The notes below the pieces were generated by a model. The model ran no database searches. It was not told where the DNA came from and saw nothing but the letters and a program-made list of their open reading frames with translations. From contig CAWJQC010000007.1 of assembly GCA_963844965.1 (NCBI GenBank), positions 128,001 through 192,000 of the forward strand: a stretch of 64,000 nucleotides of DNA, read 5' to 3'. A program made the position numbers and the translations under genes. This stretch comes from an uncultured bacterium. GTDB lineage: Bacteria > Patescibacteriota > Minisyncoccia > UBA6257 > 2-01-FULL-56-20. How positions within the stretch are numbered: position 1 is the first letter of the stretch; each line of letters opens with the position of its first letter. Below, in pieces: positions 74 to 57,759 of the stretch.

Positions 74-87
74 GTTATAATAAAAGC

Positions 88-214
88 ATGAATCCCGTTA
101 GAAGCCGCGATTGCTTTATAGACCAACCACAGCTCACCCTAACAATGAACGGTCGTTTTATTAAAATTAAATTTTACAGATCGCAATTGATCGCGATCTG
201 CTTCTAACGGGATG
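88..214 (+). promoter_or_regulatory. Structured leader copy 1. The 5' arm ATGAATCCCGTTAGAAGC (88-105) pairs with GCTTCTAACGGGAT (200-213), which covers the uORF stop and the gap start codon. It encodes a 39-codon uORF beginning MNPVRS (88..207).
   Basis: Perfect 14-bp complementarity. An inner second helix is present (cgcgat / atcgcg). The uORF stop TAA at 205-207 lies 4 nt before the gap ATG at 212. A paralogous copy sits upstream of murA. Confidence 0.5.
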
Positions 215-5526: not shown

Positions 5527-5581
5527 TTAGAAAGTAGTAGGTAGTAAGTAGAAAGTAGAACAGAAACAAAGTAGAAATACA

Positions 5582-9900: not shown

Positions 9901-10812
9901 ATGAAAGCATTAAAGGACTTTCTCAAAGAAACCGATGCGGGAGGATTTGCCATTGGGCATTTCAATTTTTCCGACCTTGCGGGTCTTAAGGCGATCTTTG
10001 AGGCGGCGGAGGAGTTAAATGTTCCGGTTATGGTCGGGGTTTCGGAGGGCGAGCGGGAATTCGTTGGGGTCTGGCAAGCGGCCGCGCTCGTGAAAAGTTT
10101 GCGCGAAGAATACGATTACCCGATTTTTTTGAATGCCGACCACACGCATTCTTTGGAAAAGGTCCGGGAAGCCGCCGAAGCCGGTTTTGACGAGATTTTG
10201 TTTGACCCCACACCTAACTTCGTTGGGAGAGGGGCAAGCGGCTCCGAGTCCGTGTTGGAGGAAAGTATTAGATTGACGAAAGAAGCGGTGCGGCTCGTAA
10301 AATCCATAAATAAAAAGATTTTGGTTGAGGGGGAGATTGGCTACATCGGTAGTTCATCGGAGGTGATGAAGGAGCGGCCGGAGGGGATAGAGCTTACGAT
10401 GCCGGAAGAAGCGCAGATGTTCGTGAAAGAAACCGGTGTTGATGTTCTGGCGCCGGCGGTCGGCAATATGCACGGGCTCTTAGCGCGGACGGGCGCGGAC
10501 GGTACGCGGACTTACGCGGAAAAGCGGTTGGATATCGCTCGCGTTAAGGCGATAAAGGATGCAGTGAAAATTCCGCTTACTTTGCATGGCGGTTCCGGCA
10601 CGGCTGACGAAGATTTTGTCGCGGCTATTAAAGCCGGAATCAATATAATCCACATAAATACGGAAATCCGCCTTGCTTGGCGCCGCGGCGTGGAAGAGGG
10701 ACTGAAAAACAATCCCGACGAAATCGCGCCCTATAAAATTCTGCCGCCGGCGGTAGAAGGAATTAAAAAAATCGTAAAAGAGAGATTGGAATTATTTAGG
10801 AGAGAAACTTAG
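9901..10812 (+). CDS. fba: class II fructose/tagatose-bisphosphate aldolase family
   Basis: FAIGHFNF, NADHTHS and LHGGSG motifs. Confidence 0.75.
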   Translation: MKALKDFLKETDAGGFAIGHFNFSDLAGLKAIFEAAEELNVPVMVGVSEGEREFVGVWQAAALVKSLREEYDYPIFLNADHTHSLEKVREAAEAGFDEILFDPTPNFVGRGASGSESVLEESIRLTKEAVRLVKSINKKILVEGEIGYIGSSSEVMKERPEGIELTMPEEAQMFVKETGVDVLAPAVGNMHGLLARTGADGTRTYAEKRLDIARVKAIKDAVKIPLTLHGGSGTADEDFVAAIKAGINIIHINTEIRLAWRRGVEEGLKNNPDEIAPYKILPPAVEGIKKIVKERLELFRRET

Positions 10813-14640: not shown

Positions 14641-14740
14641 CTTACGAAAGTACGAAAACATACGAAATTACGAAAAAGGTGAGCCATGCCATTTCGTACA
14701 TTCGTACAATTTCGTATTTTCGTAAGACAAATTTCGTATG
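14641..14740. repeat. Palindromic element copy A: four direct TACGAAA heptamers, a core ggtgagcc, then four TTTCGTA heptamers
   Basis: Near-identical architecture to the element at 63850..63940. Confidence 0.8.
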
Positions 14741-15767: not shown

Positions 15768-15875
15768 TGCAATCCGAAAAATCCGAATTTCATCCGAATG
15801 ACCCAAATAGAATAAACAAAAACCATTTGGAGCATTCGGATGTATTCGCAGATTCGGATTGCTGTAGCGAAGCGT

Positions 15876-18100: not shown

Positions 18101-19073
18101 ATGGACCGTCAATCGGAAAAATCAATTTTTTTTGACGCGCACACGCATGTTCAATTTCAGGCGTTCGCTGGCGATTATAAGGAAGCCGTCGGGCGCGCTT
18201 TGAGTTCGGGCGTCGGCATGGTGAATGTCGGCACACAGAAGGACACCTCGCGGCGGGCCGTGGAAATCGCGCACGAATACGAGAACGAAAAAATTTTCGC
18301 AGCGGTCGGTTTGCATCCGATTCATACCGGTAAATCGTTTCACGACGAGGATGAACTTGGCCTACCGCGGACAGACGCAGATGATACGCAGACAGACGCG
18401 GAAAATTTTCAGCGTAAGTCCGCGTTAAATCCGCATGGGTCGGCGTCTGCTGGCTTCTGGAGCAGGGCGGAGGAATTCGATCATGAGTACTATAAAAAAC
18501 TCGCGCTGGACCAAAAGTTGTGGCGGTAGGGGAATGCGGATTGGACTATTACCGTGCGACAAGCGACATGGGACAAGCGACATGGAATGAAATGAAGGCG
18601 CTAAACAGAGGCAGGTGCTTGGGGCACAGATACAACTTGCGCGGGAAATAAAAAAGCCCTTAATGCTCCACTGCCGAGACGGAAAAAAGTCCGGCACGGG
18701 GCCGGCATTTGATGATTTGGTTAATATTTTAGAGAGTCATGCGGCAGGTGTTCCCTTTGTGAGCCACTCTTTCGTCCGCAATCTCGGGTTGGCGAAAAAA
18801 TTACTTGATTTGGGTTCGTATTTTTCTTTTAACGGCATTATTACATTCACGCACGATTACGATGAAGTTGTGCGTTTTCTGCCGGTGGACAGGATATTGT
18901 CCGAGACAGATGCGCCGTATCTCGCGCCTGTGCCCCATAGGGGCAAACGCAACGAACCGGCGTATGTGGTAGAGGTTGTTAAGAAGATGGCGGAAATAAG
19001 AGGCCTTTCGATTGAAAAGATGGCAGAGCAGATTCGGGAAAATACGGGAAAAATTTTCGGTTTGAGATTTTGA
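18101..19073 (+). CDS. tatD: TatD-family deoxyribonuclease with two frameshifts at about 18513 and 18600 and a perfect 14-bp tandem duplication (18558-18571 / 18572-18585)
   Basis: FDAHTHV, KVVAVGECGLDYYR and PLMLHCRD motifs are found in three different frames. Confidence 0.75.
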
Positions 19074-26706: not shown

Positions 26707-28269
26707 TTAGAAATTTGCGAGGGTATCACCCTCATTTATCCCCGACGTAATTTCCGTCATACCGTTGTCGCCAACAGGGCCGATCTGAACCTGTTTTTGT
26801 TCAGTCCCAGCGGGGGTTTTCACGAGCACGAAATATTCGTTGCCGTTATTGAGTACGAGCCGACTCGGCACAAAGATCACGCCGTCGTCTTCGGCGAGGA
26901 CGATGTGAACGTTTCCCGTCATGCCGTCTTTCACTTGCGGCTCTGGATTCGTGAAGAAAAGCGTAACAAGGTACGAAGGCGTGCCGTTTACTTGTGTCTC
27001 CGCGCTGTCTATCGCCGTTATGGTCGCTGGGAATGTCGTTCCGGTACCGAACGCGTCCAGAGTTACCGCGGCCGCATCGCCAACTTTAACTTTTACGACG
27101 TCATATTCGGAAACATAGGTTTGAACTTCAAGTCCGCCATTATTTACGAGCGAAAGAACCTGCATGCCGGGTGACACCACTTGTCCGACCTGCGCGGTGA
27201 GGTCTTGCACCGTACCGGGGAACGGCGCAGCAAGCGAAGTATCGTCCAAAGCAACTTGCGCGGCAGCGGCAGCGGCCTGCGCTTGCGCGATGGCTGCCTG
27301 TTGCTCCTGGATCTCCTGCGATGTTGAACTGGCGGTCGTAAGGTTCAACCCCGCTTGCGCTTGCGCGATGGCGGATTTTTCGGAAGCAATATTCTGTTCG
27401 GCAGCGGTGATCTCCGTGACCGCCCCGTTCACTTCATTCAATCCCGTTGTCGCTGAAGTCTTGTAAGTTGCGGCGGTAGACGCTGACAGGCCTTCTTCGT
27501 CGGTGAGCGCCGTCAGCGCCTCATTCATAAGGTTTTGGATCGGCGAGAGATAGTCCGCGGCGTTTTGGAGTGTCGTATCAAAAACCGCATCAGGAGAACT
27601 TGCGGTCATATTTGCCAATTCCGTCTGCCATGCGTTGAGGTCGGCGCTCGCGGAAACCCTCAGATTTTGAATATTATTAAGCAATTGAGAGTCGCTCACG
27701 CTGAACGTAAGCTGTGGATTATTTCCTTCTGGGTCTGAGAAGAATGCGGCGAGCTGGGTGCGCACCGCATCGTTCGCTTTGGCGTAGGCGTCATTCAAAG
27801 TATTGGGAATTCCCGTATAATCATTCGCGAGCGATTGTTCTGCGGACGCGAGCGCGGCCTGCGATACGGCGATCGTCTGCGATGTGGCGCCCGTTTGTAG
27901 TTCGTCTAGTTTCACCTGAGCCGCCGCAAGAGCAGCGTTTGCCTGTTCAGCGCCCGCTTTGAACGTCGCACCGTTCAGGTCCGCAAGCGTTTCTCCGGTG
28001 CCCACCACATCCCCTTCTTTCACATACACATGCGCTATCTTACCTGCTTCCTGAAAAGAAATGCCTGCCTTATCCTCCGCGACCACCGTTCCCGGCTCGT
28101 CGAGCGCCTCCACGACATTACCGCGCGCAACGGCGTAAGAACCAAGCGTGGGCGCCGCGTTGGAAAAAATATACCACACCGCGCCGCCGGCAACGAGAAC
28201 AACGGCAACCCCGGCGACAAACCGGAAATGGACAACGAAAAACTTTTTTATAACATTAGACCGTTCCAT
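26707..28269 (-). CDS. HlyD-family membrane fusion protein with a long Ala/Gln-rich coiled coil
   Basis: TM anchor, lipoyl-like domain, extended coiled coil and a C-terminal beta domain. Confidence 0.65.
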   Translation of the reverse strand: MERSNVIKKFFVVHFRFVAGVAVVLVAGGAVWYIFSNAAPTLGSYAVARGNVVEALDEPGTVVAEDKAGISFQEAGKIAHVYVKEGDVVGTGETLADLNGATFKAGAEQANAALAAAQVKLDELQTGATSQTIAVSQAALASAEQSLANDYTGIPNTLNDAYAKANDAVRTQLAAFFSDPEGNNPQLTFSVSDSQLLNNIQNLRVSASADLNAWQTELANMTASSPDAVFDTTLQNAADYLSPIQNLMNEALTALTDEEGLSASTAATYKTSATTGLNEVNGAVTEITAAEQNIASEKSAIAQAQAGLNLTTASSTSQEIQEQQAAIAQAQAAAAAAQVALDDTSLAAPFPGTVQDLTAQVGQVVSPGMQVLSLVNNGGLEVQTYVSEYDVVKVKVGDAAAVTLDAFGTGTTFPATITAIDSAETQVNGTPSYLVTLFFTNPEPQVKDGMTGNVHIVLAEDDGVIFVPSRLVLNNGNEYFVLVKTPAGTEQKQVQIGPVGDNGMTEITSGINEGDTLANF

Positions 28270-36423: not shown

Positions 36424-38252
36424 ATGTCACCGAGCAACAAGTACAACGAAAGTTATATTTCGCCTTGGGAGGGTGATAAAGACGCCATGGTGGGCAAGAG
36501 CGGAAGGTCTAAATCGGCGAAGCACCGCAACCGCGGCCCCATATTGATCGCTGTGGCGGCGCTTATCGCGGTAATAGCCGTCTTATTTTATTTCGCGTTT
36601 CTGCGGAAACCGGCGGGGCCGGATGTGGGCATGGAATTTCTGAATCCTGGAGCGATACTGGCCGGCGACGGGTTCACTCTCACAGTTTCGATTTCCAATT
36701 ATTCGGACATTGTTCTCCGGGACGCGAGGGTTTCGCTTGTTCTGCCCGACGGCGTTTCGTTTACGGAATCGCAGGCCGACCAGCGCGTTGATGAGAGAAC
36801 CATAGGCGATTTCGGGCCCGGGAGCGTCAATCAACAGTCCTTTAATTTGATAGTTACGAACGGCAGCAATGTATTGAAACATATCCAGGCTAAATTTGAC
36901 TACGCGACGGGCGGGAGCACAAGCGCCGAATTTGAGAGTGTCGGAGAATATGATCTCTCGGTTGGGCAACCGGCAATCGGTTTGAATCTGAGCGCGCCGC
37001 AGAGCATTTTCAACAGCCAGGATTTCACAGTCAAGGTTTCGTACATAAACAACACCAGCCACGATTTCAAAAATTTGCATTTAAACGTTGATTATCCGCC
37101 GATATTCGGATTCAAATCCAGCACGATGCAGCCCGAGTCCGGGAGCAATAATTCTTGGGATTTAGGGACGCTCGCTTCCGGCTCCAGCGGCGTTATATCC
37201 ATAACCGGCAGCGTTGTTGGGCCGGAAAAGTCGTTTTTCAACTTCGGCGCTTCTTTAACATCCGACCTTATGGGTAATACTTACACGATCAATAGCCAGA
37301 CGGCGTCCGTGGCCATTTCCGCGGCGCCGCTCGCGCTTCAAGTCACGCGCCGGAGCACGGCGGATAATGCACTGCATGCCGGTGACCCCGTTACTTACAA
37401 TCTTAATTACGTGAATAATTCCGATGTTACCATGCAGGACGTTACGATAAGCGCCAAACTTACCGGTGAAATGTTTGATTTCACGACGGTTGACACCAAA
37501 GCCTACTTTAATTCGCTGACCGATACGATTAATTGGTTCGCGGCGAACACTCCGGAGCTCCAGAGCATCGCTCCGGGACAGGGAGGGTCGGTTGCTTTCG
37601 CGATCAAAGTCAAAGATTCTTTTCCGATCCGGCTGATGAGCGACAAAAATTACACCTTGCGGCTGGACGCGCAGATTCATCCCCGACGGTTCCGGCAAAT
37701 ACGGCCGCGAACAAGACGGTTTCCATTGCCAGCATTGAAGACAAAGTCGCGGGAAAAATTGATCTGGCGGCGGAAGCGTATTGGCGCGACGCGCAGAGCG
37801 GGATTTTAAATCAAGGGCCTTACCCGCCGAGAGTGGATCAGCCGACGCAGTACACCATACACTGGCGGCTCACAAATTATTCCACAGACGTGGCAAATAT
37901 CACGGTTTCGGCGTATCTGCAGTCAGGCAGCCGGTTCACTGGAGTTGTGAGTTCCAATATCGCGAGTAGCACGCCGACGTACAATCCGGATTCCGGCCTG
38001 GTTACGTGGCAGGTCGGTTCTTTGCCGGCAACGAAAGGGATCACTGGAGCTCCGGCCGAAGCGGTTTTCCAGATAGAAAACACGCCGTCACTCACGCAGG
38101 TCAACCAAAACGTGTCGCTTCTGGGGGAAACGAAAGTTGAGTGGACGGATTCTTTCGTTGGAGCGGTGTACGACGCTACTGCTCCGCCGCTGGACACCTC
38201 CCTTCCGTATGATAAAACGATAACGGATACAGGCAGGACGGTGGAGAATTAG
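36424..38252 (+). CDS. large secreted surface protein with repeated beta-rich (DUF11/CARDB-like) domains; -1 frameshift near the C4 run at 37681-37684
   Basis: N-terminal TM helix and Ser/Thr/Asn-rich repeats. The frame change is recovered by ORF 37533..38252. Confidence 0.55.
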
Positions 38253-38310
38253 AAATTAGGAAGCAGAAAATAGAAAACAGGGATATGCCCAAAACAGATA
38301 AAGGCGATTA

Positions 38311-39675
38311 ATGGACAAGATTGTGTCTTTGGCGAAGCGCAGAGGGTTTATTTTCCCCGGCTCGGAAATTTATGGAGGACTTGCCAACTCCTGGGATTAT
38401 GGGCCGCTTGGTGTGGAGCTCAAGAATAATATCAAAAATTTCTGGTGGGACAGATTTGTGCACAGGCGCGACGACATCGTGGGATTGGACGCGGCTTTAA
38501 TAATGAACCCCAAGGTGTGGGAAGCGAGCGGTCATCTCAAAGAATTTATTGACCCGTTGATTGAATGCAAAAAGTGCCACGAACGCTTCCGCGCCGACGA
38601 GCTTTTTAAAAAAGGCAGCTGGAAGAAAGAGCAGGAATTCTTGGGAACGCTTTCGGAAGCCGACAAAGAGAAAAGGGTCCGCGACCTGTTTGACAAATGC
38701 CCGAGTTGCGGTGCGGAAGACCAGTTTACGATACCGCGCAATTTCAACATGATGTTTAAGACGTTCATCGGCCCCGCCTACGGCGAGAAATCCGTCGCTT
38801 ACTTCAGGCCGGAAACGGCGCAGGCGATGTTCGTTGATTTCAAGAGTATTTTGAACACAACGCGCAAGACCGTTCCTTTCGGCATCGCCCAGGTTGGAAG
38901 GGCGTTTAGGAACGAAATAACGCCGGGCAATTTCGTTTTCCGGACAAGAGAATTTGAGCAAATGGAAATAGAATATTTCATCCGCGAGAAGGACTGGGAA
39001 AAATATTTTGACTATTGGCGCAAGGAGATGCTGGATTGGGTCGGGGATCTGGGTATCAAACCGGCGCGCATCCACGAGAGCGAAATCAAAGAGGAAGACC
39101 GCGCGCATTATTCGTCAAAAACCGTGGATTTTGAATACAATTTCCCGTTTGGCAGAAAAGAACTTTACGGCTTGGCGTATAGAACGGATTTTGACCTCAA
39201 GAATCATGAAAAGTTTTCCGGCGCTAACCTGAAGTACCGCGATCCGAAAACCGGAGAGGAGTTCTGGCCGCACGTCATTGAGCCGAGCATGGGTGTTGAG
39301 CGCCTTTTGCTTGCCGTAATGCTTGAAGCGTATGCCGAGGATGGCGACAGAGTTATTTTGAAACTTCCGGCAAAATTGGCGCCGCATAAGGCGGCGGTGT
39401 TTCCGCTCTTGGCCAACAAGCCAGAACTTATAAAGCTCGCAAAGAAAATATATGACGATTTGCGCCAACAGTTCGTGGTCGCTTGGGACGACCGCGGCAA
39501 CATCGGCAAGCGCTACTACGCGCAGGATGAAATCGGCACGCCCTGCTGCATCACCGTTGATTTTGATTCGCTGGAGGAGGACGACGTTACCGTGCGTGAT
39601 AGAGATACGGCGAAACAGGAGAGGATTAAAATAGCCGAACTCGAAGAATATTTGAAAGAGCACATAGGACCATGA
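38311..39675 (+). CDS. glyQS: glycyl-tRNA synthetase (alpha2 dimer type)
   Basis: Class II motifs, FRNEITPGNF, a zinc-ribbon insertion (CKKCHERF...CPSCG) and a C-terminal anticodon-binding domain. Confidence 0.9.
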   Translation: MDKIVSLAKRRGFIFPGSEIYGGLANSWDYGPLGVELKNNIKNFWWDRFVHRRDDIVGLDAALIMNPKVWEASGHLKEFIDPLIECKKCHERFRADELFKKGSWKKEQEFLGTLSEADKEKRVRDLFDKCPSCGAEDQFTIPRNFNMMFKTFIGPAYGEKSVAYFRPETAQAMFVDFKSILNTTRKTVPFGIAQVGRAFRNEITPGNFVFRTREFEQMEIEYFIREKDWEKYFDYWRKEMLDWVGDLGIKPARIHESEIKEEDRAHYSSKTVDFEYNFPFGRKELYGLAYRTDFDLKNHEKFSGANLKYRDPKTGEEFWPHVIEPSMGVERLLLAVMLEAYAEDGDRVILKLPAKLAPHKAAVFPLLANKPELIKLAKKIYDDLRQQFVVAWDDRGNIGKRYYAQDEIGTPCCITVDFDSLEEDDVTVRDRDTAKQERIKIAELEEYLKEHIGP

Positions 39676-40664
39676 CGGAAGTAATCGAACAGAAGGAGGA
39701 GCAGGTGGAAGCAGAAAAAGAACCGAAAATGAATTTTACGATATTTTATTCGGGTCATGTCAGAGCAGGAGATTTTGATAAATTGAAAGCGCTCTTCGAA
39801 GAAGCTGATATATACGTTCCGGAATCTATTGGATGGGATAAAAGGGAAAAGGAACTCTTTAGCAGGATGTCGGCTGGAGAGATAGACGGGGAAACATTTA
39901 AAGAAATGTTGTCGAAGTTCGAAAAAGACGACCCCGTCCTAGCCGAGGAATATAAGATAATTTACAATTCACATAAACCGATAGAATTCCTCGATGTTCC
40001 CGGAGATAATCAGACACATAAAGACACCGTGATGGCTCTTGAGGGCGAGTACGACGCTTATCTCGGTTTTTTGGACGGAGAATTTGACGAGGCGGTCTCG
40101 GAAATGAAGGGAGCTTCGGAAAAGTATGCAATTGCGCAGCAGGAACGGGAAAAGTACATAAAGTCGTTGGCGAACAGCAGATTGAAAGATTTAGTCGAGA
40201 AAAACCAGGCGCTTAAAGACAAGATTAAAAAAGGAGGCGGTATAAATGTTTTAATGAGCATAGGCGCGGATCACACGGCATTGGCCAGCGGTTTAAAAAA
40301 GGATTGGCCAGGGGGCGTAGAGACGAAATTCAGCGACTCGCCCTTTATATTCGATTATGACGCGGAATTGTACCGGCGTTATATGTTCAATAAGGAAGTT
40401 GGCGATGAATTGGTTGCCAAAGCCTTACTTTCCAGAGGATTGGTCTATAAATTTCGAAATTTTTGCAGAAATCATCAAGAGATAAGCGTTGTTTCAAGAA
40501 AAATTATTTCCGGCTTGACGTTTAATGATATAAGGAAAATTTCCGAAAGTTTGGGGGCTGGCGACGATTTGCAAAAAGCTTTTGATTCGTTGGGCAGGGA
40601 TATAAAAATCCCCGAATCGCGCGAAGAAGTAGATAAAATACTAGGAAAAAATAATAAATCATGA
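39672..40664 (+). CDS. hypothetical protein
   Basis: 330 aa. Its stop TGA overlaps the ATG of the murA leader uORF (ATGA). Confidence 0.5.
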   Translation: MTEVIEQKEEQVEAEKEPKMNFTIFYSGHVRAGDFDKLKALFEEADIYVPESIGWDKREKELFSRMSAGEIDGETFKEMLSKFEKDDPVLAEEYKIIYNSHKPIEFLDVPGDNQTHKDTVMALEGEYDAYLGFLDGEFDEAVSEMKGASEKYAIAQQEREKYIKSLANSRLKDLVEKNQALKDKIKKGGGINVLMSIGADHTALASGLKKDWPGGVETKFSDSPFIFDYDAELYRRYMFNKEVGDELVAKALLSRGLVYKFRNFCRNHQEISVVSRKIISGLTFNDIRKISESLGAGDDLQKAFDSLGRDIKIPESREEVDKILGKNNKS

Positions 40665-40805
40665 ATCCCGTTAAAAGCCCTGCCTGGCAGGCAGGCGCGG
40701 TCGCGTTGCAATAAATAAATTTATCAATACTATACTATGAAAAAGTTGAGTGAGGTAAAAAAATGTATGCAGGGCGGTACGACCGCGACCTGCTTCTAGC
40801 GGGAT
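40661..40805 (+). promoter_or_regulatory. Structured leader copy 2. The 5' arm ATGAATCCCGTTAAAAGC (40661-40678) pairs with GCTTCTAGCGGGAT (40792-40805), which covers the murA start codon. It encodes a 17-codon uORF beginning MNPVKS (40661..40714).
   Basis: The outer helix pairs with one G-U wobble and one A-C mismatch. The inner helix co-varies with copy 1 (cggtcgcg / cgcgacc). The uORF is translationally coupled (ATGA) to the upstream gene. Confidence 0.5.
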
Positions 40806-42069
40806 GAAATTCATTATCCACGGCGGTAAAAAACTTTCGGGCGAAATAGAAGTGATGGGCGCCAAAAATTCGGTTTTGAAGGCGATGGCGGCTTCGCTTT
40901 TGTTCGCGAACCCCGTGACGATAGAAAATGTCCCGCAGATTGAGGACGTGGCGCGTATGTCCGAATTGCTTATGGACTTGGGAGCCGCGATAAAGAAACC
41001 GGACGAGCGGACGCTCGTGATTGATTGTGGCGTCGTCAGAGAAACGGCGATAAAAACCGAAATTGCCAACAAACTCCGCGCTTCAATCGTTCTCGCGGGA
41101 CCGCTTCTCGCGCGGAGCGGCAATGTTATTTTTCCGCATCCCGGCGGCTGCGTGATAGGGAAACGCCCAATTGATATATTTCTGGACGGCTGGCGGGCGA
41201 TGAGGGCGAAAGTGGAGGAAAAGAAAAATCGTTTTGGGGTCTCGGCGAAGAAACTTTTCGGCGCGGATTTCACTTTCCGCGTCGTCTCGGTGACGGGAAC
41301 GGAAACGTTAATGATGACGGCGGCACTGGCGCACGGGAAGACGGTTTTGCGTAACGCCGCCTGCGAGCCGGAAATTCCGGCTCTCGCGGAATTTTTGAAC
41401 AACTCCGGAGCGAAGATAAAGGGAGCCGGAACACCGATGATTGAAATTGAAGGGACCGGCGGCAAGTTGCTCAAAGCGAAGCGTCCGTTCCGCGTCATTC
41501 CGGATAGGATTGAAGCCGGAAGTTTCCTGATTTTGGGCGCGGCTCTCGGGAAAAAAGTCAGAGTAACCGATTGCGACCCCGAGCACCTTTCGGCGCTTAT
41601 GATTCAACTCAAGGACGCCGGCGTGAATTTGAAAGTTGAAAAAAATTGGATTGAGGTCGGGCGGCCGAAGCATCTCAAGGCCGCGAATGCCAAAACAAAA
41701 GAATATCCCGGCTTTCCCACGGACCTTCAGGCGCCGTACGCCGTGCTTATGACGCAAGCCGAAGGCGAAAGCATGATTTTTGAAACGATTTTTGAGGGGC
41801 GGCTGGCTTACGCTGACGACCTGAAGCGAATGGGAGCGAATATCGTCCTATGCGACCCGCATAGGATTTTGATTAAGGGTCCGACGCCGCTCCACGGCCG
41901 CGAGATGGAAATGCCGGATCTCCGCGCCGGTCTCGCGTTTGTCATCGCCGCTTTATTGGCGGAAGGCGAATCAACGATAGGTAACGTTTATCAGATAGAC
42001 CGCGGCTACGAAAAGATAGATGAGCGACTGAGGAAGCTGGGAGCGGAGATTGAAAGAACGGAACGGTGA
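40804..42069 (+). CDS. murA: UDP-N-acetylglucosamine 1-carboxyvinyltransferase
   Basis: Full-length 421-aa EPT-family protein with the active-site Cys region (PHPGGCVIGKRPID). Confidence 0.95.
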   Translation: MKFIIHGGKKLSGEIEVMGAKNSVLKAMAASLLFANPVTIENVPQIEDVARMSELLMDLGAAIKKPDERTLVIDCGVVRETAIKTEIANKLRASIVLAGPLLARSGNVIFPHPGGCVIGKRPIDIFLDGWRAMRAKVEEKKNRFGVSAKKLFGADFTFRVVSVTGTETLMMTAALAHGKTVLRNAACEPEIPALAEFLNNSGAKIKGAGTPMIEIEGTGGKLLKAKRPFRVIPDRIEAGSFLILGAALGKKVRVTDCDPEHLSALMIQLKDAGVNLKVEKNWIEVGRPKHLKAANAKTKEYPGFPTDLQAPYAVLMTQAEGESMIFETIFEGRLAYADDLKRMGANIVLCDPHRILIKGPTPLHGREMEMPDLRAGLAFVIAALLAEGESTIGNVYQIDRGYEKIDERLRKLGAEIERTER

Positions 42070-42125: not shown

Positions 42126-42425
42126 GTGACTAACAAGTATAATTCGGTTATTTATACTGGTATCACGAACGACATCGTGCGGCGAATGGGTGAGCATGTT
42201 CGCAAAGCGGTTCCGGGTTTTACATCAAGATATAGTGTATGTAAATTGGTGTGGTTCGAAGAATTCAAGACACCGGAGGAGGCCATCACCGCAGAGAAAC
42301 GAATCAAAGGGTGGGTGCTAAAAAAGAAAGTGGCGTTGATCAAAGAGAAAAATCCTGAATTCATAGATTTATTGCATGGAGATCCTTCGGTTTTGCCTCA
42401 GGATGACAATGGGGAGAGGCGTTGA
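42126..42425 (+). CDS. GIY-YIG nuclease family protein (UPF0213/YhbQ-like)
   Basis: SVIYTGITNDIVRRMGEH...KLVWFEEF GIY-YIG core. Confidence 0.75.
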   Translation: MTNKYNSVIYTGITNDIVRRMGEHVRKAVPGFTSRYSVCKLVWFEEFKTPEEAITAEKRIKGWVLKKKVALIKEKNPEFIDLLHGDPSVLPQDDNGERR

Positions 42426-42457
42426 TTTTTATACTCAAAAGATATAGATTTAAGTCA

Positions 42458-43466
42458 ATGTTCACCAAGAAAATCGGTATTGACTTAGGCACGACCAACA
42501 CCGTGGTTTTCGTGCCTGGCAAGGGATTTATCATCAACGAGCCGACTATTGTCGCCTTGATTAAGCCCGACAATACGGTGCTTGCCGTGGGTGTGGAGGC
42601 GAAGGAAATGATCGGGCGGACGCCGGAAGAAATCGTCGCCTACAGGCCGCTTAAGGATGGCGTGATTGCCGACTATTACATCACGAAGGCGATGCTTACG
42701 TATTTCATCTCCAAGGCCTCTGGCTGGTTCAATGTTTTCAAACCGGACGTTGTCATCTCGGTTCCGGCTGGAATTACGCAGACCGAGCGGCGCGCCGTTA
42801 CGAACGCCGCGAAAGAAGCCGGAGCGGGAAACGCTTTTATCGTGCGCGAGCCGGTTCTCGCCGCTTTGGGCGCTGGAATTCCAATTAACGCCCGTTCGGG
42901 GAACATGATCATCAACATCGGCGGCGGCACTTCCGAAGTCGGCGGTCATCGCTTTGGGCAGCATAGTTTCCTGGACGAGCTTGCGCATTGCCGGCAACAG
43001 ATTTGACCAGGCAGTCAGCGATTATGTGAAAAGGAAATACGCCTTGGCCATCGGCGAGCAGACGGCCGAGAACGTGAAAATTGAGATCGGCTCGGCATGG
43101 CGACAAAAGAAAAGATGGAATATGAACTCCGCGGCCGCGATTTGATAACCGGGCTGCCGAAAGATATATGTCATCAATTCCAACGAAATAGCGGACGCAC
43201 TGAATCCGTTCCTCGTGGATATCGCCGGCTCAATTCAAAGCGTTTTTAACGTGACTCCGCCGGAGCTTGTCGCGGACATCATGGAGAAGGGGATTATTCT
43301 TTCCGGCGGCAGCGTCCAGCTTCACAATATGCCGGAATTTTTTGAAAGATTTTTGGGCGTGCAGGCCTATGTCGCCGAGGATCCGTTATTCTGCGTCGCC
43401 AAAGGCACGGGGCTGATTCTGGACCACTTGGATATGTATAAGAGGACGCTTTTGAACAAGAGATAA
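42458..43466 (+). CDS. mreB: rod shape-determining protein MreB, interrupted by three single-base insertions at about 42935, 43100 and 43170
   Basis: IGIDLGTTNT and IGGGTSEV(AVIALGSIVS) motifs and the C-terminal GIILSGGS...AEDPLFCVAKG are split across four frame segments. Confidence 0.8.
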
Positions 43467-47119: not shown

Positions 47120-48121
47120 ATGAAAAAGAAAAGCGTGGTTCTTATCGGCGGAGGGGTGGGCGCGTCAACATTTACGAAGGCGTTGAAAGATTTGCCCATC
47201 AGTTTGACAACAGTTGTCAGCGTTTTTGACGACGGCGGTTCCACTGGCGCGATCAGGCGCGACTATGGCGGCATTGCTCTCGGCGACTTTCGGCAGTGCG
47301 TTTTCGCGAGTTTGGGGTTGGATGGAAAGATTTTGCAGTCGTTGAACCACCGCTTTGGGCGGGGGAATCTTTTTGGCGTGAACGCGGGAAATCTTCTGTT
47401 GCGGTCCTTTTTGGATCAGTGCGAAACGGAACGCGACGGCGTGCGCGAATTGCATTGTTTATTGGGTCTTCGGAATCGGGTAATGCCGATTTCATACGAT
47501 TTCGCGCGTCTTTGCGGGAAGTTATCCAATGGAAGGATTCTCGGTGACCAGCAGCAGATAGCCGATCATTTAAGTTTCGCGGAGGCATCTATCAAAGAAT
47601 TATATCTTGATCCCGGCGCGAGGATTAATCCTGACTTACGAAAAGTGATAAGCGAGGCGGATTATCTTATTTTCGCACCGGGTCACTTCTTCACGAGTGT
47701 TTTACCGCATATTTACGTTAAAGGTTTCGCCGCCGCGTGGAAAGAAAGTAAGGCGAAGAAAATGTGGTTTTTTAATCTATTGGCGCACAGAGGGCAGGAC
47801 AGCTATTATACGCTCCGCGATTATTTACGATGGTTTGAGCGTGTTTTGGGGAGGCACCCCTTTGATGTTCTCGTGCTGAATAAGGATGTTGATAAGAAGA
47901 TTTTGGAAATCGTGAAAGACCGATTTGAGAAAACAAGAGTCACCGACGATGATTTGCGGTACGCGAAAGGCATTGGCGTGGAAATCGTGGTTGCCGATCT
48001 CGTGTCCTCCGAACTTCGTCCACAGCAAAAAAATGACGTGATAATGCGTGCGCCGCTTTGCCACGACCCCCGGAAAATAAAAAAATTCTTCGCTGGCCAA
48101 ATTCTCGCAAAGCGACGGTAG
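47120..48121 (+). CDS. YvcK/CofD-family protein (UPF0052, gluconeogenesis factor-like)
   Basis: LIGGGVG....VVSVFDDGGSTG...GD.R signature. Confidence 0.75.
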   Translation: MKKKSVVLIGGGVGASTFTKALKDLPISLTTVVSVFDDGGSTGAIRRDYGGIALGDFRQCVFASLGLDGKILQSLNHRFGRGNLFGVNAGNLLLRSFLDQCETERDGVRELHCLLGLRNRVMPISYDFARLCGKLSNGRILGDQQQIADHLSFAEASIKELYLDPGARINPDLRKVISEADYLIFAPGHFFTSVLPHIYVKGFAAAWKESKAKKMWFFNLLAHRGQDSYYTLRDYLRWFERVLGRHPFDVLVLNKDVDKKILEIVKDRFEKTRVTDDDLRYAKGIGVEIVVADLVSSELRPQQKNDVIMRAPLCHDPRKIKKFFAGQILAKRR

Positions 48122-50788: not shown

Positions 50789-51455
50789 ACACCCTACACA
50801 TTTTTTGAAACTAAAATGTGTAGGGCTCTTTCTCTCAGTCTCGGCAACCCCGACGTAAAGTCGGGGTTAAAGTCAGCATTGGGATGGTTGGCATTTCCGC
50901 CGCAAGGCGGAAAATTAAGAGCGAATGGTGGATGCCCTTGACATCAAAAGGCGACGAAGGACGCGGCGTAGCGGCGATACGCCTCGGGGAGGTGCGTAGC
51001 AACCTGTGATCCGGGGATTTCCGAATGGGGAAACCCAATTGAGCAAACCTCAATTTTTTTGCCGCAAGGCAAAAAGCAAACCCGCTGAAGTAAAACATTC
51101 CAGTAAGCGGAGGAATAGAGAACTAATGTTATTCCCTTAGTATCGGCGAGAGAAAAGGGAAGAGCCTAAACCTAAGTTTTCGCAAGAAAAGTTTGGTGTT
51201 ATAAGGTAAAAACACTTTGGATATAACGTTGAGCGTTATCCGCCAACGGCGGAGCGGCGACCAGCGTTATATCTAAAAAGGAGTTACAAATTGATTTGTT
51301 AGCCGAAGCCCACTGGAAAGGGGCGCCAAAGGGGGTGATAGCCCCGTAGGCGAAAACGAATCAACTTCTCGTTTTTATCCTTGAGTACTCTGAGGTAAAT
51401 TAGCTTCGGAGGAATTCGCCTGTACTATCAGGCAAGGCTAAATACTTTTGATGAT

Positions 51456-51492
<37 letters not shown>

Positions 51493-51688
51493 CAGGCCGG
51501 TGAGGCCGTTGAAATAGAACCTGAAACCATTCGTTTACAAGGAATTGAACCACGAACGTTCTGCCGCAAGGCGGGACGAGTGGGACAATGTGCCTATTGA
51601 AGAATGAGCCAACGACTTATTTTGCATTGCTCGTGTAAGCATCTATAAGATGCGTACGCACAGCGAAAGCGAGTCTTAATAGGGCGAA

Positions 51689-51972
51689 AACCATCTCAAA
51701 TTTTTGGACTGAAAAATAAAAACCGGTCAGTTTTTAGCTGCCGGTCTGCGAGATACCAATTCTTGTTCTAATTTTCTGACCTGAGCGTCCAGTTTTTCTT
51801 GAAGGCCACGATGCCTCAAGTATCTCCTGCCGCTTACGTGCGATCGATGTTTTTTCCTGGTCCAGATGGAATGTTGGGCCACGCAAACTCCTTTTGTCGG
51901 GCGACTGTAGATCTGGAAGGATTTTAGGATGAGCCGAATAGAAAGTCAACAGTCCAAAAATTTGAGATGGTT
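51689..51972 (+). other. Intervening sequence A in 23S helix 25 (about 284 nt), closed by a perfect 23-bp inverted repeat (aaccatctcaaatttttggactg / cagtccaaaaatttgagatggtt)
   Basis: The flanking rRNA sequence AATAGGGCG / GACCCGAAGCC matches the helix-25 IVS site. Confidence 0.7.
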
Positions 51973-52486
51973 AGGCAGTGCAACATAGACCCGAAGCCAG
52001 ATGAGCTTGCCTTGGCCAGGGTGAAATCCGCCGAAAGGCGGATGGAGGCCCGAACTGGTGGGTTGTTCAAAACCTTCGGATGAGCTGAGGTAAGGAGTGA
52101 AAAGCTAATCGAATCTGGTAATAGCTGGTTCTCTCCGAAATAGTTTTACGACTAGCGGCGCAGAAAATTTCGCGGGGGTAGAGCACTGGATGATTCGTAA
52201 AGGCCGAAAGGCCGACGAATCAATCAAACTCCGAATACCGCGATTGGAACCTGCGCTAGTCAGACTGCGGGGGCTAAGCTCCGTGGTCGCGAGGGAAAAA
52301 GCCCAGATCGTCAGCTAAGGTCCCTAAATCCATGCTAAGTGTTAAAGGTAGTCTTCTGCCATAAACAGATAGGAGGTTGGCTTAGAGGTAGCCATCCTTT
52401 AAAGAGTGTGTAACAACTCACTATTCGACGGCAGGGGGCGCGAAAATGTACCGGGGCTAAGCATGGTACCGAAGCTACGAATTACC

Positions 52487-52587
52487 TTGTGCTCCGCACA
52501 AGAATTTTCAGGTAATAATTTTCAATTTTCAAATGGTTTGGAAATTGTAAATTGCAAAATTGGAAATTCTCGCGCGCAGCGCGAGGT
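52487..52587 (+). other. Intervening sequence B in 23S helix 45 (about 100 nt): terminal hairpins gtgctccgcac and ctcgcgcgcagcgcgag around an AT-rich palindrome
   Basis: Sits between GAAGCTACGAATTACC and GTAGTGGTAGGAGAGC, the helix-45 IVS site. Confidence 0.65.
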
Positions 52588-52884
52588 AGTGGTAGGAGAG
52601 CATTCGTATTGCACTGAAGCTCGACCCGCGAGGGCGAGTGGAGCGGTACGAAGAGACAATGTTGGTATGAGTAACCACAATCCCAATGAGAAATTGGAAC
52701 CCCGAAAATCCAAGGTTTCCGTGGCACTGGCAATCAACCACGGGTTAGGCGGCCCTAAGCCGATCCCGAAAGGGGCAGGCGATGGACAGACGGTTAATAT
52801 TCCGTCCCTTCCCTATGGTTATCTGCCGCATGACGGAGGAAATAAGCTTGCGTGCCTTATTGGTTTGGCATGGTTTGCCTCAAA

Positions 52885-53033
52885 GCGTGTCTCACTGCGT
52901 TCGACACTATAGTTAAACAATTTTTCAGTTAACGAGTTGCGAGTTAACGAGTTGAAAACAAAAAACCCGTTAACACGTTAACTCTTTAACTCGTTAATAA
53001 TTAATTATTGGGTGGCGAGCGGAGCGAGGCACG
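52885..53033 (+). other. Intervening sequence C (helix 58 region), a member of the CGTGYCTCACTNNCGTTCGRCAC ... GAGCGGNGCGAGGCACG family
   Basis: Closing helix cgtgtctc / gaggcacg; interior gttaacgagtt repeats and their inverse. Confidence 0.65.
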
Positions 53034-53237
53034 TTGGAGGCCGACCGAAGGTTCGGTTTTTACCGGGCCGACGCAGGCGAAGAGCCTTCCAAGAAAAGCG
53101 CGGCGGTCACGCCGTAGAGAATCCGTACCGGAAACCGACACAGGTGGATTGGGCGAGAAGCCCTAGGGGAACGAGTGATTTGCCTCTAAGGAACTCGGCA
53201 AACAAGCGGCCGTAAGTTAGCAATATGGCCTGCCCGA

Positions 53238-53353
53238 CCGTGCCTCACTGCGTTCGGCGCGGAATTTAAAATTTTACAATTTTTAATTTTCAAACTGTTT
53301 GCAAAATTGAAAATTATATATTGAAAATTCCGCACGAGCATAGCGAGGTGCGG
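53238..53353 (+). other. Intervening sequence D (helix 63 region), same family
   Basis: Closing helix ccgtgcctc / gaggtgcgg (G-U compensated); interior aattttcaaa / tttgcaaaattgaaaatt palindrome. Confidence 0.65.
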
Positions 53354-54297
53354 TTGGGCCGCAGCGAAAGTCCCTTTGGCGACTGTTTACCAAAAACACA
53401 GCTCCCTGCGAACTCGCAAGAGGATGTATAGGGGGTGACGCCTGACCGATGCGAGAAGGTCAAGGCCGACGGTGCACGTAGCACATAGCATGTAACACAA
53501 AACAAGAAAAAATAAATAAAACCTGCTCCATGTTACATGTTGCGTGCTGCGTGTGCTGATTGGCTCAAGCCCTCGTCAATGTCAGCGGTAACTATAACCG
53601 TTCTAAGGTAGCGCAATTCCTTTTCGGGTAAGTTCCGAAGCGCACGAAAGGCGTAACGATCAAAGGACTGTCTCAGAGGCAAGCTCGGTGAAAATGCGAT
53701 TCCCGTGAAGACGCGGGATACCTGCAGCGGGACGAAAAGACCCCGGAAGCTTTACTGCAGCTTGGTATTGTTTCTAGGGCTTTGATGCGTAGCGTAGTGG
53801 GGAGCCTTTGAAGCTCCGCTCTCGGGCGGGGTGGAGGCGACAATGAAACACCCATCTTCAAAGTTTTAGCGACTAACCAGTTGGGGACCCTACACTCTCT
53901 AGATAAATTTTGGAAATCCAGAGAGTGTAGGGAAACCCAACCGGGACAGTGCTTGGTAGGCAGTTTAAATGGGGCGTTTTCCTCCAAAAAAGTAACGGAG
54001 GAGTTTATTAAGGTCGGCTTAGCCCGGATGGAAATCGGGCAGGACGTGCAAACGCAAAAGCCGGCTTAACTGCAAGGCCTACAAGCCGCGCAGATGCGAA
54101 AGCAGAAGTTAGTGACCCGACCACACATTATAGAATGGTGGGAGACACCGGACAAAAGCTACTCCGGGGATAACAGGCTGGTGAAGTCCGAGAGTCCCTA
54201 TCGACGACTTCGCTCGGCACCTCGATGTCGGCTCGGCACAGCGCGGGGGTGAAGAAGCTCCCAAGCGTTTGGCTGTTCGCCAATTAAAGTGCCACGT

Positions 54298-54338
<41 letters not shown>

Positions 54339-54456
54339 TGCTGCAGGCGTTTACACTTGAGGGGAGTTGGCCCTAGTACGAGAGGACTGGGCTGAACTGA
54401 CCTCTGGTCTACCGGCTTTGGTACCAACTGAAGCGCCGGGTAGCTATGTCGGGAAG

Positions 54457-54490
<34 letters not shown>

Positions 54491-54510
54491 ACCCCAAGAT
54501 TAGGTGTAGT

Positions 54511-57714: not shown

Positions 57715-57759
57715 TTATTTTATACGGTGGCTTGCGCGGTCAAATCTGTTTTTTATGGT

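Follow-up and report, generated by a model that had tools for sequence, protein, structure and literature searches.

A probably mobile family of hairpin elements at start codons of Patescibacteria genes

Results

Two hairpin elements overlap the start codons of gap and murA

The window, by which we mean the whole 64-kb stretch of DNA that was analyzed, carries the genes gap and murA, whose identities were confirmed with NCBIfam, and each of them is preceded by a hairpin-forming element. The names of the best protein matches assign the DNA to Patescibacteria/Parcubacteria. The first-pass annotation had described two leaders with common arms, inner helices and short upstream ORFs (uORFs), and we recovered all of these by direct reading of both copies. 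The two copies (four arms) are the only ones in the window; the remaining matches at 3 mismatches were at chance expectation. Copy 1, upstream of gap, comprises the following features, listed with its native context.

51-75, + strand: terminator-like hairpin and T-run of the upstream gene; native context outside the element, with the same arrangement before gap in the relatives L120 and L121
76-81, + strand: TATAAT box, ending 6 nt before the uORF ATG at 88
88-216, + strand: whole element with flanking repeats, read directly
88-92, + strand: left direct repeat ATGAA; on our reading the original gap start codon, now the uORF start
88-207, + strand: uORF of 39 codons (MNPVRS...LIAICF), whose stop is the conserved TAA at 205-207, 4 nt before the gap ATG
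92-111, + strand: 5' arm, ATCCCGTTAGAAGC (92-105) plus inner CGCGAT (106-111)
145-207, + strand: internal ATG-ORF of 20 codons, MNGRFIKIKFYRSQLIAICF, sharing frame and stop with the uORF
188-213, + strand: 3' arm, TGATCGCGATCTGCTTCTAACGGGAT, with TGA at 188-190 in the gap frame and TAA at 205-207, 4 nt before the ATG
212-216, + strand: right direct repeat ATGAA; working gap start codon (ORF 212-1237)

The outer helix of copy 1 pairs ATCCCGTTAGAAGC (92-105) with GCTTCTAACGGGAT (200-213) over 14 bp without a mismatch and extends over the first two bases, A and T, of the gap start codon (212-214), while the inner helix is formed by CGCGAT (106-111) and ATCGCG (190-195). The annotation had placed the TATAAT box about 7 nt before the uORF; the box is there, at a spacing of 6 nt. 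Judging from the relatives L120 and L121, which have TATAAT-N6/7-ATG directly at gap, the box at 76-81 is evidently the -10 of the native gap promoter, and its spacing to the ATG suggests a leaderless-type arrangement. Copy 2, upstream of murA, is composed as follows.

40661-40808, + strand: whole element with flanking repeats, read directly
40661-40665, + strand: left direct repeat ATGAA; TGA at 40662-40664 is the stop of the ORF 39672-40664 (ATGA overlap)
40661-40714, + strand: uORF of 17 codons, terminating within the element
40665-40705, + strand: 5' arm, ATCCCGTTAAAAGC, with an extra small hairpin CCTGCCTGGCAGGCAGG (40679-40695) and inner CGCGGTCGCG
40737-40799, + strand: internal ATG-ORF of 20 codons, MKKLSEVKKCMQGGTTATCF, ending at TAG 40797-40799, the conserved stop position
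40780-40805, + strand: 3' arm, CGACCGCGACCTGCTTCTAGCGGGAT
40804-40808, + strand: right direct repeat ATGAA; murA start codon (ORF 40804-42069)

Here the outer helix (40665-40678 with 40792-40805) includes one G-U and one A-C pair, and the inner helix joins CGCGGTCG (40696-40703) to CGACCGCG (40780-40787). The terminal stop of copy 2 carries an A-to-G change that leaves it a stop (TAG). The interiors of the two copies, described earlier as otherwise unrelated, are largely so, but both hold a 20-codon ATG-ORF that ends at the conserved stop of the 3' arm. We considered the 330-aa ORF upstream of copy 2 as a partner protein and rejected it, as it had no match in Pfam or NCBIfam and no homolog near other elements.

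RNA folding supported the hairpins that had been proposed. The outer helix was present in the MFE structures of copy 1 (-39.6 kcal/mol, z -4.9) and copy 2 (-55.7 kcal/mol, z -4.6), and in both cases none of 200 shuffles was as stable. A comparison of the whole window with Rfam 15 at the gathering score gave no match, and positions 1-400 searched at E up to 10 gave chance-level matches only. The annotation had also stressed that neither gene has a standard SD-led start. No SD is indeed present, but this is not special to the two genes, since nearly all genes across the window lack one; the anti-SD motif has been reported to be absent from about half of Parcubacteria 16S rRNAs (PMC9297842).

An internal sigma-70 promoter was rejected as a candidate, because the single weak match to the consensus (9/12) in copy 1 and the absence of any in copy 2 correspond to the level in shuffled sequences. 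Across the family described below, -10-like boxes before internal ATGs were likewise at background (23% vs 22%). The mreB gene in the window is frameshifted; given this, assembly indel errors may also affect the uORF frames.

The elements belong to a family found across Patescibacteria

We found more than 200 elements bounded by CCCGTTAGAAGC ... GCTTCTAACGGG in genome and metagenome contigs of Patescibacteria (CPR). Their length ranges from 50 to 208 nt, with most at 111-119 nt. The termini are near-invariant, reading (A/G)T-CCCGTTAGAAGC at the 5' end and GCTTCTAACGGG-AT at the 3' end; between them lie another helix, which covaries, and an interior rich in A. Arms of 12-14 nt are conserved in the more than 200 copies, and the family consensus helix has 14 bp with compensatory changes at its three inner pairs. 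Exact matches to the 14-mer were present in at least 119 genome contigs, of which 65 had a paired inverted arm 50-320 nt away; these paired contigs are almost all Patescibacteria MAGs and represent many classes, with Saccharibacteria MAGs among them. The viral-contig control gave 83 matches, none of which had a partner arm (0/83). We therefore rejected carriage by phages, as single, unpaired matches of this kind correspond to chance level.

Several copies can occur in one genome, as in the window (2 in 64 kb) and in L057 and L015 (3 within 8 kb in each), and both tandem copies (L071, L012, L085) and nested copies (L061, L100) were observed. All ORFs inside the elements have at most 55 codons, and no transposase gene lies inside. 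We looked for an autonomous copy or a transposase with these ends in about 240 loci, none of which had a pair of arms separated by 0.33-6 kb. The interior shows no conserved unpaired positions of the kind seen in ligand- or protein-binding RNAs. The covariation of the inner helix, noted earlier from the two window copies, is real, but it equals two common subfamily variants of the family (CGCGATCGC and CGCGGTCGC) and is therefore weak evidence for constraint at the RNA level. In the literature on CPR MITEs, start-codon palindromes and repeats of Saccharibacteria and Parcubacteria, we found no published description of the element.

Two observations on sequence conservation count against the MITE-like reading that we favor below. 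Between the two window copies, most of the interior is unrelated, which is unusual for a single MITE burst. The terminal 11-12 nt are invariant across very anciently diverged lineages, and a transposase site would account for such termini no better than functional constraint or a conserved factor of the host.

Relatives carry empty sites

In order to place the two copies in context, we compared gap and murA with their orthologs in relatives, in which both neighborhoods are syntenic with the window. The gap orthologs at 91% and 82% identity (L120, L121) are preceded by terminator-TATAAT-N6/7-ATGAA and lack the element. The murA orthologs at 83%, 81% and 75% identity (L124-L126) follow the stop of an aaRS gene after 7-19 nt, begin with ATGAA(A/G)TT and also lack it. 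Thus, both sites are polymorphic for the insertion, and the relatives have a single ATGAA where the window reads ATGAA-element-ATGAA. For the gap site of the window itself, a 22-mer of the predicted empty allele had 0 matches in metagenomes. In one short Logan contig (L123; ERR10755942), an identical gap gene adjoins an element with another interior; this contig could be a k-mer chimera.

These comparisons bear on the two readings that the first-pass annotation had offered. The one it preferred, a conserved translational-control leader of gap and murA, is contradicted by the absence of the motif upstream of the orthologs, an outcome that the annotation itself had named as refuting. Its alternative, in which a small inverted-repeat element contributes the start codon, gains support from the empty sites, the target-derived repeat described below, the more than 200 copies and their tandem and nested arrangement.

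The elements sit on start codons and are flanked by a direct repeat

In a first sample, ATG directly follows CGGG in 78/100 paired elements, and 73/80 ATGs after CGGG begin an ORF that spans 60 aa or more. A second sample, chosen by the 5' arm only, had ATG at this position in 84/94 elements, with long ORFs in 79/84. The 23 further copies with a TAA(A/G)CGGG 3' arm also precede an ATG. Overall, about 90% of the elements are directly followed by the ATG of a long ORF, and all of them have the same orientation, which could result from function instead of insertion bias. Judged by their translations, the genes behind the elements are housekeeping genes without relation to one another (topA, tig, aaRSs, clpP, lexA, secD, murG, pgk and ribosomal protein genes); their functions extend from replication, translation and secretion to cell wall and glycolysis.

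A second ATG lies upstream, 5-7 nt before CCCG, in 58/80 and 70/83 elements of two samples, and bases 4-5 of the repeat match those of the respective gene in 44/50 and 51/56 cases; about 20% of copies are missing the upstream repeat. The flanking repeat reads ATGNR, of which at least the GNR part is target-derived. The duplicated target has either 3 or 5 nt, and a GT-ended subfamily suggests 3 nt. Among the 155 elements with an upstream ATG and flanking sequence long enough to score, 76 lie no more than 20 nt behind an upstream ORF, with an ATGA overlap in 21 of these cases, and a -10-like box is found 4-9 nt upstream in 35/155.

A terminal stop and frame-biased small ORFs

All elements (211/211) have TAA, TAG or TGA 4-5 nt before the host ATG (-7 or -8), a position that was largely fixed by the search pattern; the two changes seen within TAA yield TGA and TAG. 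In 113/211 elements, this terminal stop closes an ATG-ORF with 10 or more codons; the corresponding numbers for the two remaining frames are 31 and 9. uORFs are open to the terminal stop in 12/33 cases compared to 3.6 expected, and none is fused to the gene. None of the uORFs in the frame of the gene stays open (0/17); in copy 1 this frame is closed by the TGA at -24, and other copies have either a UGA overlapping AUGA or a UGA at -24.

We additionally compared 20 distinct 23-codon ORFs, which are related and thus non-independent copies. Synonymous changes made up 40% of their single-base codon differences, compared to 19% and 18% in the shifted frames. The 23-codon ORF of this one subfamily thus shows a substitution pattern of the coding type, a signal that was absent from a small 24-codon subgroup.

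Discussion

We consider it likely that the gap and murA sites each hold a copy of a MITE-like, non-autonomous foldback element whose family is widespread in Patescibacteria and specialized for start codons. Small size without a transposase, terminal inverted repeats, target duplication, empty sites and multiple copies are all features of MITEs that we found here. Insertion would occur exactly at the start codon and duplicate the first bases of the gene, so that the ORF remains complete with its ATG rebuilt at the 3' end of the element. The original ATG, together with the native promoter or the overlap with the upstream gene, would then open a short ORF into the element. Provided that transcription runs through the element, the arms would pair in the transcript and enclose the A and U of the new AUG together with the 12-14 nt that precede it. 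Ribosomes might start at the old AUG, in a leaderless manner at gap and via the ATGA overlap with the upstream stop at murA, or else at the internal AUG of the element. Translating ribosomes would unwind the helix, reach the UAA or UAG that the 3' arm places 4-5 nt before the AUG, terminate there and reinitiate at the start of the gene. Such reinitiation would allow the element to sit on essential genes in genomes without SD-led initiation. The idea in the first-pass annotation that uORF translation opens the helix around the start codon remains plausible and gains from the terminal stop, even if the search pattern largely fixed the latter, and from the frame-specific ORFs, but not as a regulation specific to gap and murA. 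Helix opening would instead explain how any gene tolerates the insertion or makes use of it.

The near-invariant termini across many Patescibacteria classes, the strict orientation and ATG position, the stable hairpin with compensatory changes in its inner pairs and the conserved stop with a frame-specific micro-ORF could also be expected from a conserved, non-mobile cis-regulatory RNA leader. Its hairpin would be recognized by a CPR-wide protein, RNA or ribosome, with CUUCUAACGGG as the bound sequence, and control the translation of housekeeping genes including gap and murA. We regard such a leader as unlikely, given that it is absent from gap and murA of relatives at 75-91% protein identity, that the downstream genes have no common function and that the flanking repeat copies bases 4-5 of each gene. 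Tandem and nested copies, the lack of an Rfam family match and an interior without conserved unpaired positions also argue against it. Movement of the same element as a single-stranded DNA hairpin by a tyrosine HUH enzyme (REPIN/RAYT-like or IS200/IS605-like), rather than by a DDE transposase that works on the terminal inverted repeats, would be in line with an inner arm that keeps its complementarity by compensatory change and not by fixed sequence, with a hairpin that is retained while the interior varies in length and sequence, and with the failure to find a full-length, transposase-bearing copy among the loci searched. HUH systems, however, leave no target-site duplication and recognize sub-terminal hairpins within each end, whereas a target-derived repeat is present here and the palindromes of the arms themselves (GCGATCGC, GATCGCGATC) are too short to fold alone. 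This route of movement thus appears quite improbable.

A translational bypass or shunt, in which a ribosome at the first AUG skips the hairpin unread and lands on the matching AUG at the 3' foot, much as in phage T4 gene 60 or at the byp inserts of yeast mitochondria, strikes us as very unlikely. It would make use of the matched ATGNR take-off and landing sites at both feet of one hairpin that begins 4 nt after the first AUG, and most copies do retain the upstream ATG. Ordinary reinitiation, however, can reach the downstream AUG, the stop at -7/-8 and the frame-specific ORFs would be needless for a hop, a nascent-peptide signal is impossible at codon 1, and about 20% of copies do not have the upstream AUG. 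Integron-type attC sites flanking gene cassettes resemble the elements as imperfect palindromes of 50-200 nt whose ends contain GTTAGAA and TTCTAAC around a variable center. The boxes of attC are ordered RYYYAAC ... GTTRRRY, whereas the order here is inverted (GTTAGAA ... TTCTAAC), the genes are core housekeeping genes with synteny conserved in relatives, and most of them have the element on the 5' side only. Box order and synteny thus contradict the cassette reading, to which we assign a negligible probability. It is just as hard to credit chance similarity or an assembly artifact. The contig L123, with its identical gap gene joined to a different interior, may be a k-mer chimera and would fit an artifact, but it is contradicted by the independent origin of more than 200 copies in many assemblies and projects, by the unpaired controls (0/83) and by folding z-scores below -4.5.

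The probable MITE-like element family can be compared with several known systems. Correia elements of Neisseria are about 100-150 nt long, code for no transposase, and occur in many copies with terminal inverted repeats and a short duplication of the target; they are co-transcribed as hairpins with neighboring genes, whose expression they can alter, and insert at TA in intergenic regions at varied distances from genes. The CPR element is alike in its MITE size, the lack of a coded transposase, the terminal inverted repeats, the target duplication and the copy number. Unlike Correia elements, it coincides with a start codon in about 90% of copies and keeps a single orientation, with the ATG rebuilt and a stop 4-5 nt before it, and is common to many class- and phylum-level CPR lineages. 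To our knowledge, no parent IS of the CPR element has been described. REPINs, which are associated with RAYTs, are hairpin doublets of about 100 nt that share with it conserved ends, a variable spacer, high copy number and the lack of an internal transposase. They are extragenic, often located after genes, and differ in having neither a target duplication nor a link to start codons. Rickettsia palindromic elements, mobile palindromes of about 100-150 nt that survive in or at essential genes and are translated in frame, are similarly tolerated since their insertion is compatible with expression. The CPR element instead stays outside the protein, as the frame of the gene is closed and no fusion was found (0/17).

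With regard to translation, MIRUs are reportedly short repeats between operon genes with small ORFs that overlap or abut the flanking stop and start, and are said to have been interpreted as a case of translational coupling. They are direct tandem units of 40-100 bp restricted to mycobacteria. The small ORF whose stop adjoins the downstream start is common to both, whereas MIRUs have neither hairpins with inverted termini nor a duplicated start codon. Reinitiation, shunt and bypass devices, such as ATGA-type coupling, the CaMV shunt, T4 gene 60 and the byps of yeast mitochondria, resemble the CPR element in combining a short ORF and a stable hairpin before the real start with a stop few nt from the restart AUG. 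Those devices are fixed to particular genes or viruses, except for the byps, which lie inside coding regions, whereas the CPR device is borne by a repeated insertion element before arbitrary genes.

More tentatively, and with somewhat less than even confidence, we propose that the family represents a class of selfish or domesticated elements not previously described. It would use the start codon as a landing site, rebuild the ATG and bring along its own leader ORF of about 23 codons, under peptide-level selection in one subfamily, with a stop 4 nt before the host ATG. It might act as a portable translational-coupling cassette that delivers ribosomes to arbitrary essential genes of CPR bacteria, in which SD-led initiation is lacking, and its invariant termini might be read by a start-codon-specific transposition machinery or by the translation apparatus.

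Overall, if this interpretation is correct, a repeat family that is common to most major Patescibacteria lineages targets start codons with near-complete specificity and precedes essential genes without inactivating them. This raises the question of which machinery recognizes ATG as an insertion target. The elements would explain why CPR genomes contain spurious small ORFs and N-termini that are mis-annotated, their filled and empty sites would serve as a strain-level marker, and they might provide a portable expression part for the few cultivable Saccharibacteria. In addition, they would offer a handle on translation start and restart in CPR bacteria, many of which lack the anti-SD motif and which are barely tractable experimentally.

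Two copies of a foldback element in the window

Direct reading of the sequence confirmed the leader architecture that the first-pass annotation had described upstream of gap and murA, with its arms, inner helices and upstream reading frames (uORFs, read from the left ATG). NCBIfam confirmed the identities of both genes, and an arm scan found only these two copies in the window.

88 to 212, plus strand: copy 1, from its left ATG (88) to the gap ATG (212)
76-81, plus strand: TATAAT box of copy 1, six bases ahead of ATG 88
92-105 and 200-213, plus strand: outer arms of copy 1, ATCCCGTTAGAAGC and GCTTCTAACGGGAT, perfectly complementary
106-111 and 190-195, plus strand: inner helix of copy 1, CGCGAT and ATCGCG
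88 to 205-207, plus strand: uORF of copy 1, 39 codons, its TAA (205-207) four bases ahead of the gap ATG
40661 to 40804, plus strand: copy 2, from its left ATG (40661) to the murA ATG (40804); the TGA in the context of ATG 40661 is the stop of ORF 39672-40664
Within copy 2, plus strand: outer arms whose pairing includes one G-U and one A-C; inner helix CGCGGTCG and CGACCGCG; uORF of 17 codons
145-207 (copy 1) and 40737-40799 (copy 2), plus strand: internal ATG-ORFs of 20 codons, kept in both copies

The outer helix was present in the minimum-energy RNA structure of both leaders (-39.6 kcal/mol, z = -4.9 for copy 1; -55.7 kcal/mol, z = -4.6 for copy 2). For each copy, 0 of 200 shuffles reached the stability of the native leader. 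Each copy is flanked by the direct repeat ATGAA, which precedes the 5' arm and recurs as positions 1-5 of the gene; this feature, not emphasised in the first-pass annotation, turned out to be decisive. On a Logan contig (L123, ERR10755942, positions 1-127), next to a gap gene 100% identical to that of the window over 1108 nt, the arms are identical and the interior differs from copy 1, being of the canonical type (MKLNIRKINKLKYQTRELIAICF); this could reflect strain variation, interior replacement or a k-mer/assembly chimera.

Empty sites in relatives

Relatives were located by protein searches, and their contigs were then fetched for gap and murA. Two gap orthologs (91% and 82% identity) have the upstream terminator and TATAAT box as in the window; 6-7 nt beyond the box comes ATGAAC... 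or ATGAAA..., without the element. Three murA orthologs (83%, 81% and 75% identity) are sited after a class-II aminoacyl-tRNA synthetase gene, from which 7-19 nt lead to ATGAAATT... or ATGAAGTT..., again without the element. The window sequence therefore represents about 120-140 nt inserted at the start codon with duplication of ATGAA, and the earlier reading of a leader specific to gap and murA did not hold, as the relatives' orthologs lack the motif. On sequence grounds, the left ATG at gap is the original start, 6 nt past the -10 box in a leaderless-type arrangement, and the left ATG at murA retains the ATGA overlap with the upstream stop. The empty allele predicted for the gap site of this strain was absent from the metagenome collection.

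The surroundings of murA differ in further respects. A 330-aa ORF (39672-40664) without a Pfam or NCBIfam match lies between the synthetase gene and murA, each of its ends forming an ATGA overlap; it is missing in the three relatives, where the synthetase directly precedes murA. Between murA and mreB, a 99-aa ORF with a GIY-YIG nuclease domain (42126-42425) is found, at which place relatives have other or no small ORFs.

A family placed on start codons across Patescibacteria

An exact scan for ATCCCGTTAGAAGC with one genome per species returned at least 119 stretches, and a second, inverted arm was located 50-320 nt away in 65 of the 119 matches listed. Among these, the paired carriers were almost all MAGs labelled as Patescibacteria groups (Paceibacteria, Nomurabacteria, Saccharibacteria, Kerfeldbacteria, Levyibacteriota, Kaiserbacteria, Jorgensenbacteria, Yanofskybacteria, Moranbacteria, Zambryskibacteria and similar groups), and the matches listed from other phyla were single, unpaired and at chance expectation. 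As a control, 83 matches in viral contigs were inspected, and paired arms were present in none. We also observed paired elements on four contigs labelled Omnitrophota, Planctomycetota or Gammaproteobacteria (L007, L030, L045 and L047), which may be mis-binned CPR contigs or true occurrences outside Patescibacteria.

In 78 of 100 paired elements, an ATG directly follows ...CGGG on one strand, and a reading frame of 60 aa or longer begins at 73 of 80 such ATGs. Since the search pattern included the AT of the arm, a metagenome scan was then performed with the 5' arm alone, CCCGTTAGAAGCCGCGRTCGC. Here, the ATG follows in 84 of 94 paired elements with a long ORF in 79 of the 84, and all 23 apparent orphans carry a one-base variant 3' arm, ...CTTCTAA(A/G)CGGG, then ATG. 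Orientation to the gene is uniform throughout, lengths cluster tightly at 111-119 nt, and the consensus reads ..GAAGC-CGCG(A/G)TCGC.. on the 5' side and TGA(T/C)CGCGA(T/C)CTGCTTCTAACGGG-ATG on the 3' side. The downstream products, assigned by eye from translations, include topoisomerase I, trigger factor, several aminoacyl-tRNA synthetases, ClpP, LexA, SecD, RuvC, MurG, Pgk, Adk, RF2, SSB and ribosomal proteins. These are unrelated ordinary housekeeping proteins and do not make up a regulon.

The placement may reflect either target choice by some enzyme or the survival of such insertions only. Selection alone would not explain why survivors sit exactly on the ATG, which makes some target preference, AT|GNR, likely.

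Constraint on the termini and signs of insertion

The RNAalifold consensus of 49 copies contains a 14-bp outer helix, in which the outer 11 pairs are invariant and the double changes at the three inner pairs are compensatory (e.g. GAAGC/GCTTC to GAGAC/GTCTC, GAAAT/ATTTC and GAAGT/ACTTC). Constraint thus acts on sequence in the termini and on structure in the remainder of the stem. The A/T versus G/C difference between the inner helices of the window copies, which had been taken as covariation, is present, but it is what separates two common subfamilies. On the sense strand of the gene, the interior is rich in A (A 45%, T 31%) and hence orientation-specific rather than palindromic.

In the two samples, 58 of 80 and 70 of 83 elements have an upstream ATG at a distance of 5-7 nt from CCCG. 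Where the distance is 6 nt, the two bases after this ATG match those after the ATG of the gene in 44/50 and 51/56; base 4 varies freely, indicating that each target is the source of its own bases 4-5. A purine occupies position 5 in 79/80 and 76/84; on the left side, this base is the pairing partner of the U in the downstream AUG. The left repeat is missing in about 20% of copies. We further found tandem doublets with a shared regenerated ATGAA (contigs L071, L012 and L085), nested elements (L061 and L100), and a second subfamily with the ends AC-CCCG...CGGG-GT flanked by 3-nt repeats (GTA/GTA, TTA/TTA), one member of which (L051) creates a GTG start with ATGAAC opposite on the left. These sequences suggest a duplication of 3 nt (GNR), with the element itself supplying bases 1 and 2 of the start codon in use; the duplication may instead be 5 nt.

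A search of about 240 loci for arm pairs 0.33-6 kb apart found no full-length element or transposase with these ends. The 330-aa ORF beside copy 2 was rejected as a partner, being unrelated to other copies. Rfam gave no family match, and neither the sequence nor the concept of the element was found in the literature searched.

Stops, small reading frames and a proposed mechanism

A stop lies 4 nt before the ATG (5 nt in the TAAACGGG variant) in 211 of 211 3' arms, which is partly enforced by the search pattern. The triplet is TAA in 209, TAG in one (copy 2 of the window) and TGA in one, so that both substitutions seen inside it preserve a stop. A TGA at -24 in the frame of the gene is present in copy 1 and in roughly half of the main subfamily, and ATGA starts contribute a third-frame stop. 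None of 17 left-ATG uORFs is fused to the gene; terminal stops end 15 of 58 uORFs, and in elements 90 nt or longer, 12 of 33 uORFs are open to the end versus 3.6 expected from shuffled interiors.

In 113 of 211 elements, the conserved stop closes an ATG-ORF of 10 codons or more (31 and 9 in the shifted frames), many encoding peptides of about 23 codons of the form MK.NI.KINN(I/L)KYQ(T/I)RELIAICF. Pairwise differences among 20 distinct 23-codon versions numbered 761, 824 and 1117 at codon positions 1, 2 and 3, variation thus being greatest at the third. The synonymous share of single-base codon differences was 40% versus 19% and 18% in shifted frames (n = 20), an excess also present in the loop-encoded codons 9-13. 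This is suggestive of coding constraint on the micro-ORF, among copies that are related and with a smaller 24-codon subgroup lacking the coding-type signal. Sequence scans of both window copies and of -10-like boxes across elements revealed no sign of a promoter upstream of the internal ATG.

The frame of mreB (42422-43466) is split into at least three pieces in the window (Pfam MreB 2-159 at 42422-43006 and 253-326 at 43215-43466, the middle in another frame), and the relatives' orthologs are intact (335 aa). The gene may be a pseudogene, or the split may stem from homopolymer indel errors in the assembly; in the latter case, caution on uORF frames in the window is warranted.

Context was scored for 155 elements with an upstream ATG and sufficient flank. 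An upstream ORF directly precedes 76 of them, 21 of these as ATGA overlaps, and a -10-like box lies 4-9 nt before the left ATG in 35. These contexts fit SD-independent initiation sites. The window genes have essentially no SD, and the anti-SD motif is reported to be missing from about half of Parcubacteria 16S rRNAs (PMC9297842). In many window genes, a TATAAT-like box precedes the ATG by 6-10 nt (e.g. ORFs 26707-28269, 47120-48121 and 57727-58212), a pattern that suggests widespread leaderless or short-leader mRNAs.

Our analysis establishes a repeated, oriented foldback element at start codons, with a target duplication and a built-in stop before the rebuilt ATG. We infer that it would be transcribed as part of the mRNA, where the arms would pair and mask the new start from about -14 to +2. 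Ribosomes entering at the original start or the internal AUG could open the helix, terminate 4 nt upstream and then reinitiate on the gene. The geometry at gap would suit this exactly (-10 box, 5'-proximal AUG, 39 codons, UAA-CGGG-AUG). At murA, the 17-codon uORF stops inside the element; its translation would open up the 5' arm, and the 20-codon internal frame ends at UAG-CGGG-AUG.

Other features of the window

The 23S rRNA gene (50905-54743) spans 3839 nt versus a 2925-nt model, corresponding to about 0.9 kb of insertions, and contains a 168-aa ORF (52406-52912) without a Pfam match. Perfect inverted repeats of 24 nt flank the gene (50870-50893/54737-54760), and others of 23 nt lie within it (51689-51711/51950-51972). 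Three tRNA genes are located just upstream; a 16S gene is absent from the window. Several families of long intergenic hairpins built from short periodic units, each at distant sites, may be terminators or another repeat class.

Sites of intergenic periodic hairpins
TACGAAA-like, TTAGAAA-like, GCGGAC-like and GCGAAT-like units
14641-14727, 63850-63942; 2756-2783, 5527-5554, 38249-38276
10481-10523, 18363-18445; 2700-2739, 15821-15860, 60887-60957

Relation to known systems

Like a MITE, the element is small, has inverted termini and is marked by target duplications, empty sites and a multicopy occurrence; of the defining features, only a parent IS is lacking. This MITE-like identity is well supported. 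MIRUs of mycobacteria are small-ORF repeats coupled to flanking genes and come closest in the putative mode of working, in which there is also a resemblance to reinitiation or shunt devices of the uORF/hairpin kind. The palindromic elements of Rickettsia, which can coexist with essential genes through being expression-neutral, are similar in lifestyle. In contrast to all of them, the element combines near-absolute placement on start codons, with the ATG rebuilt, with a fixed orientation, a built-in stop and micro-ORF, and a range that spans many deep CPR lineages with invariant termini.
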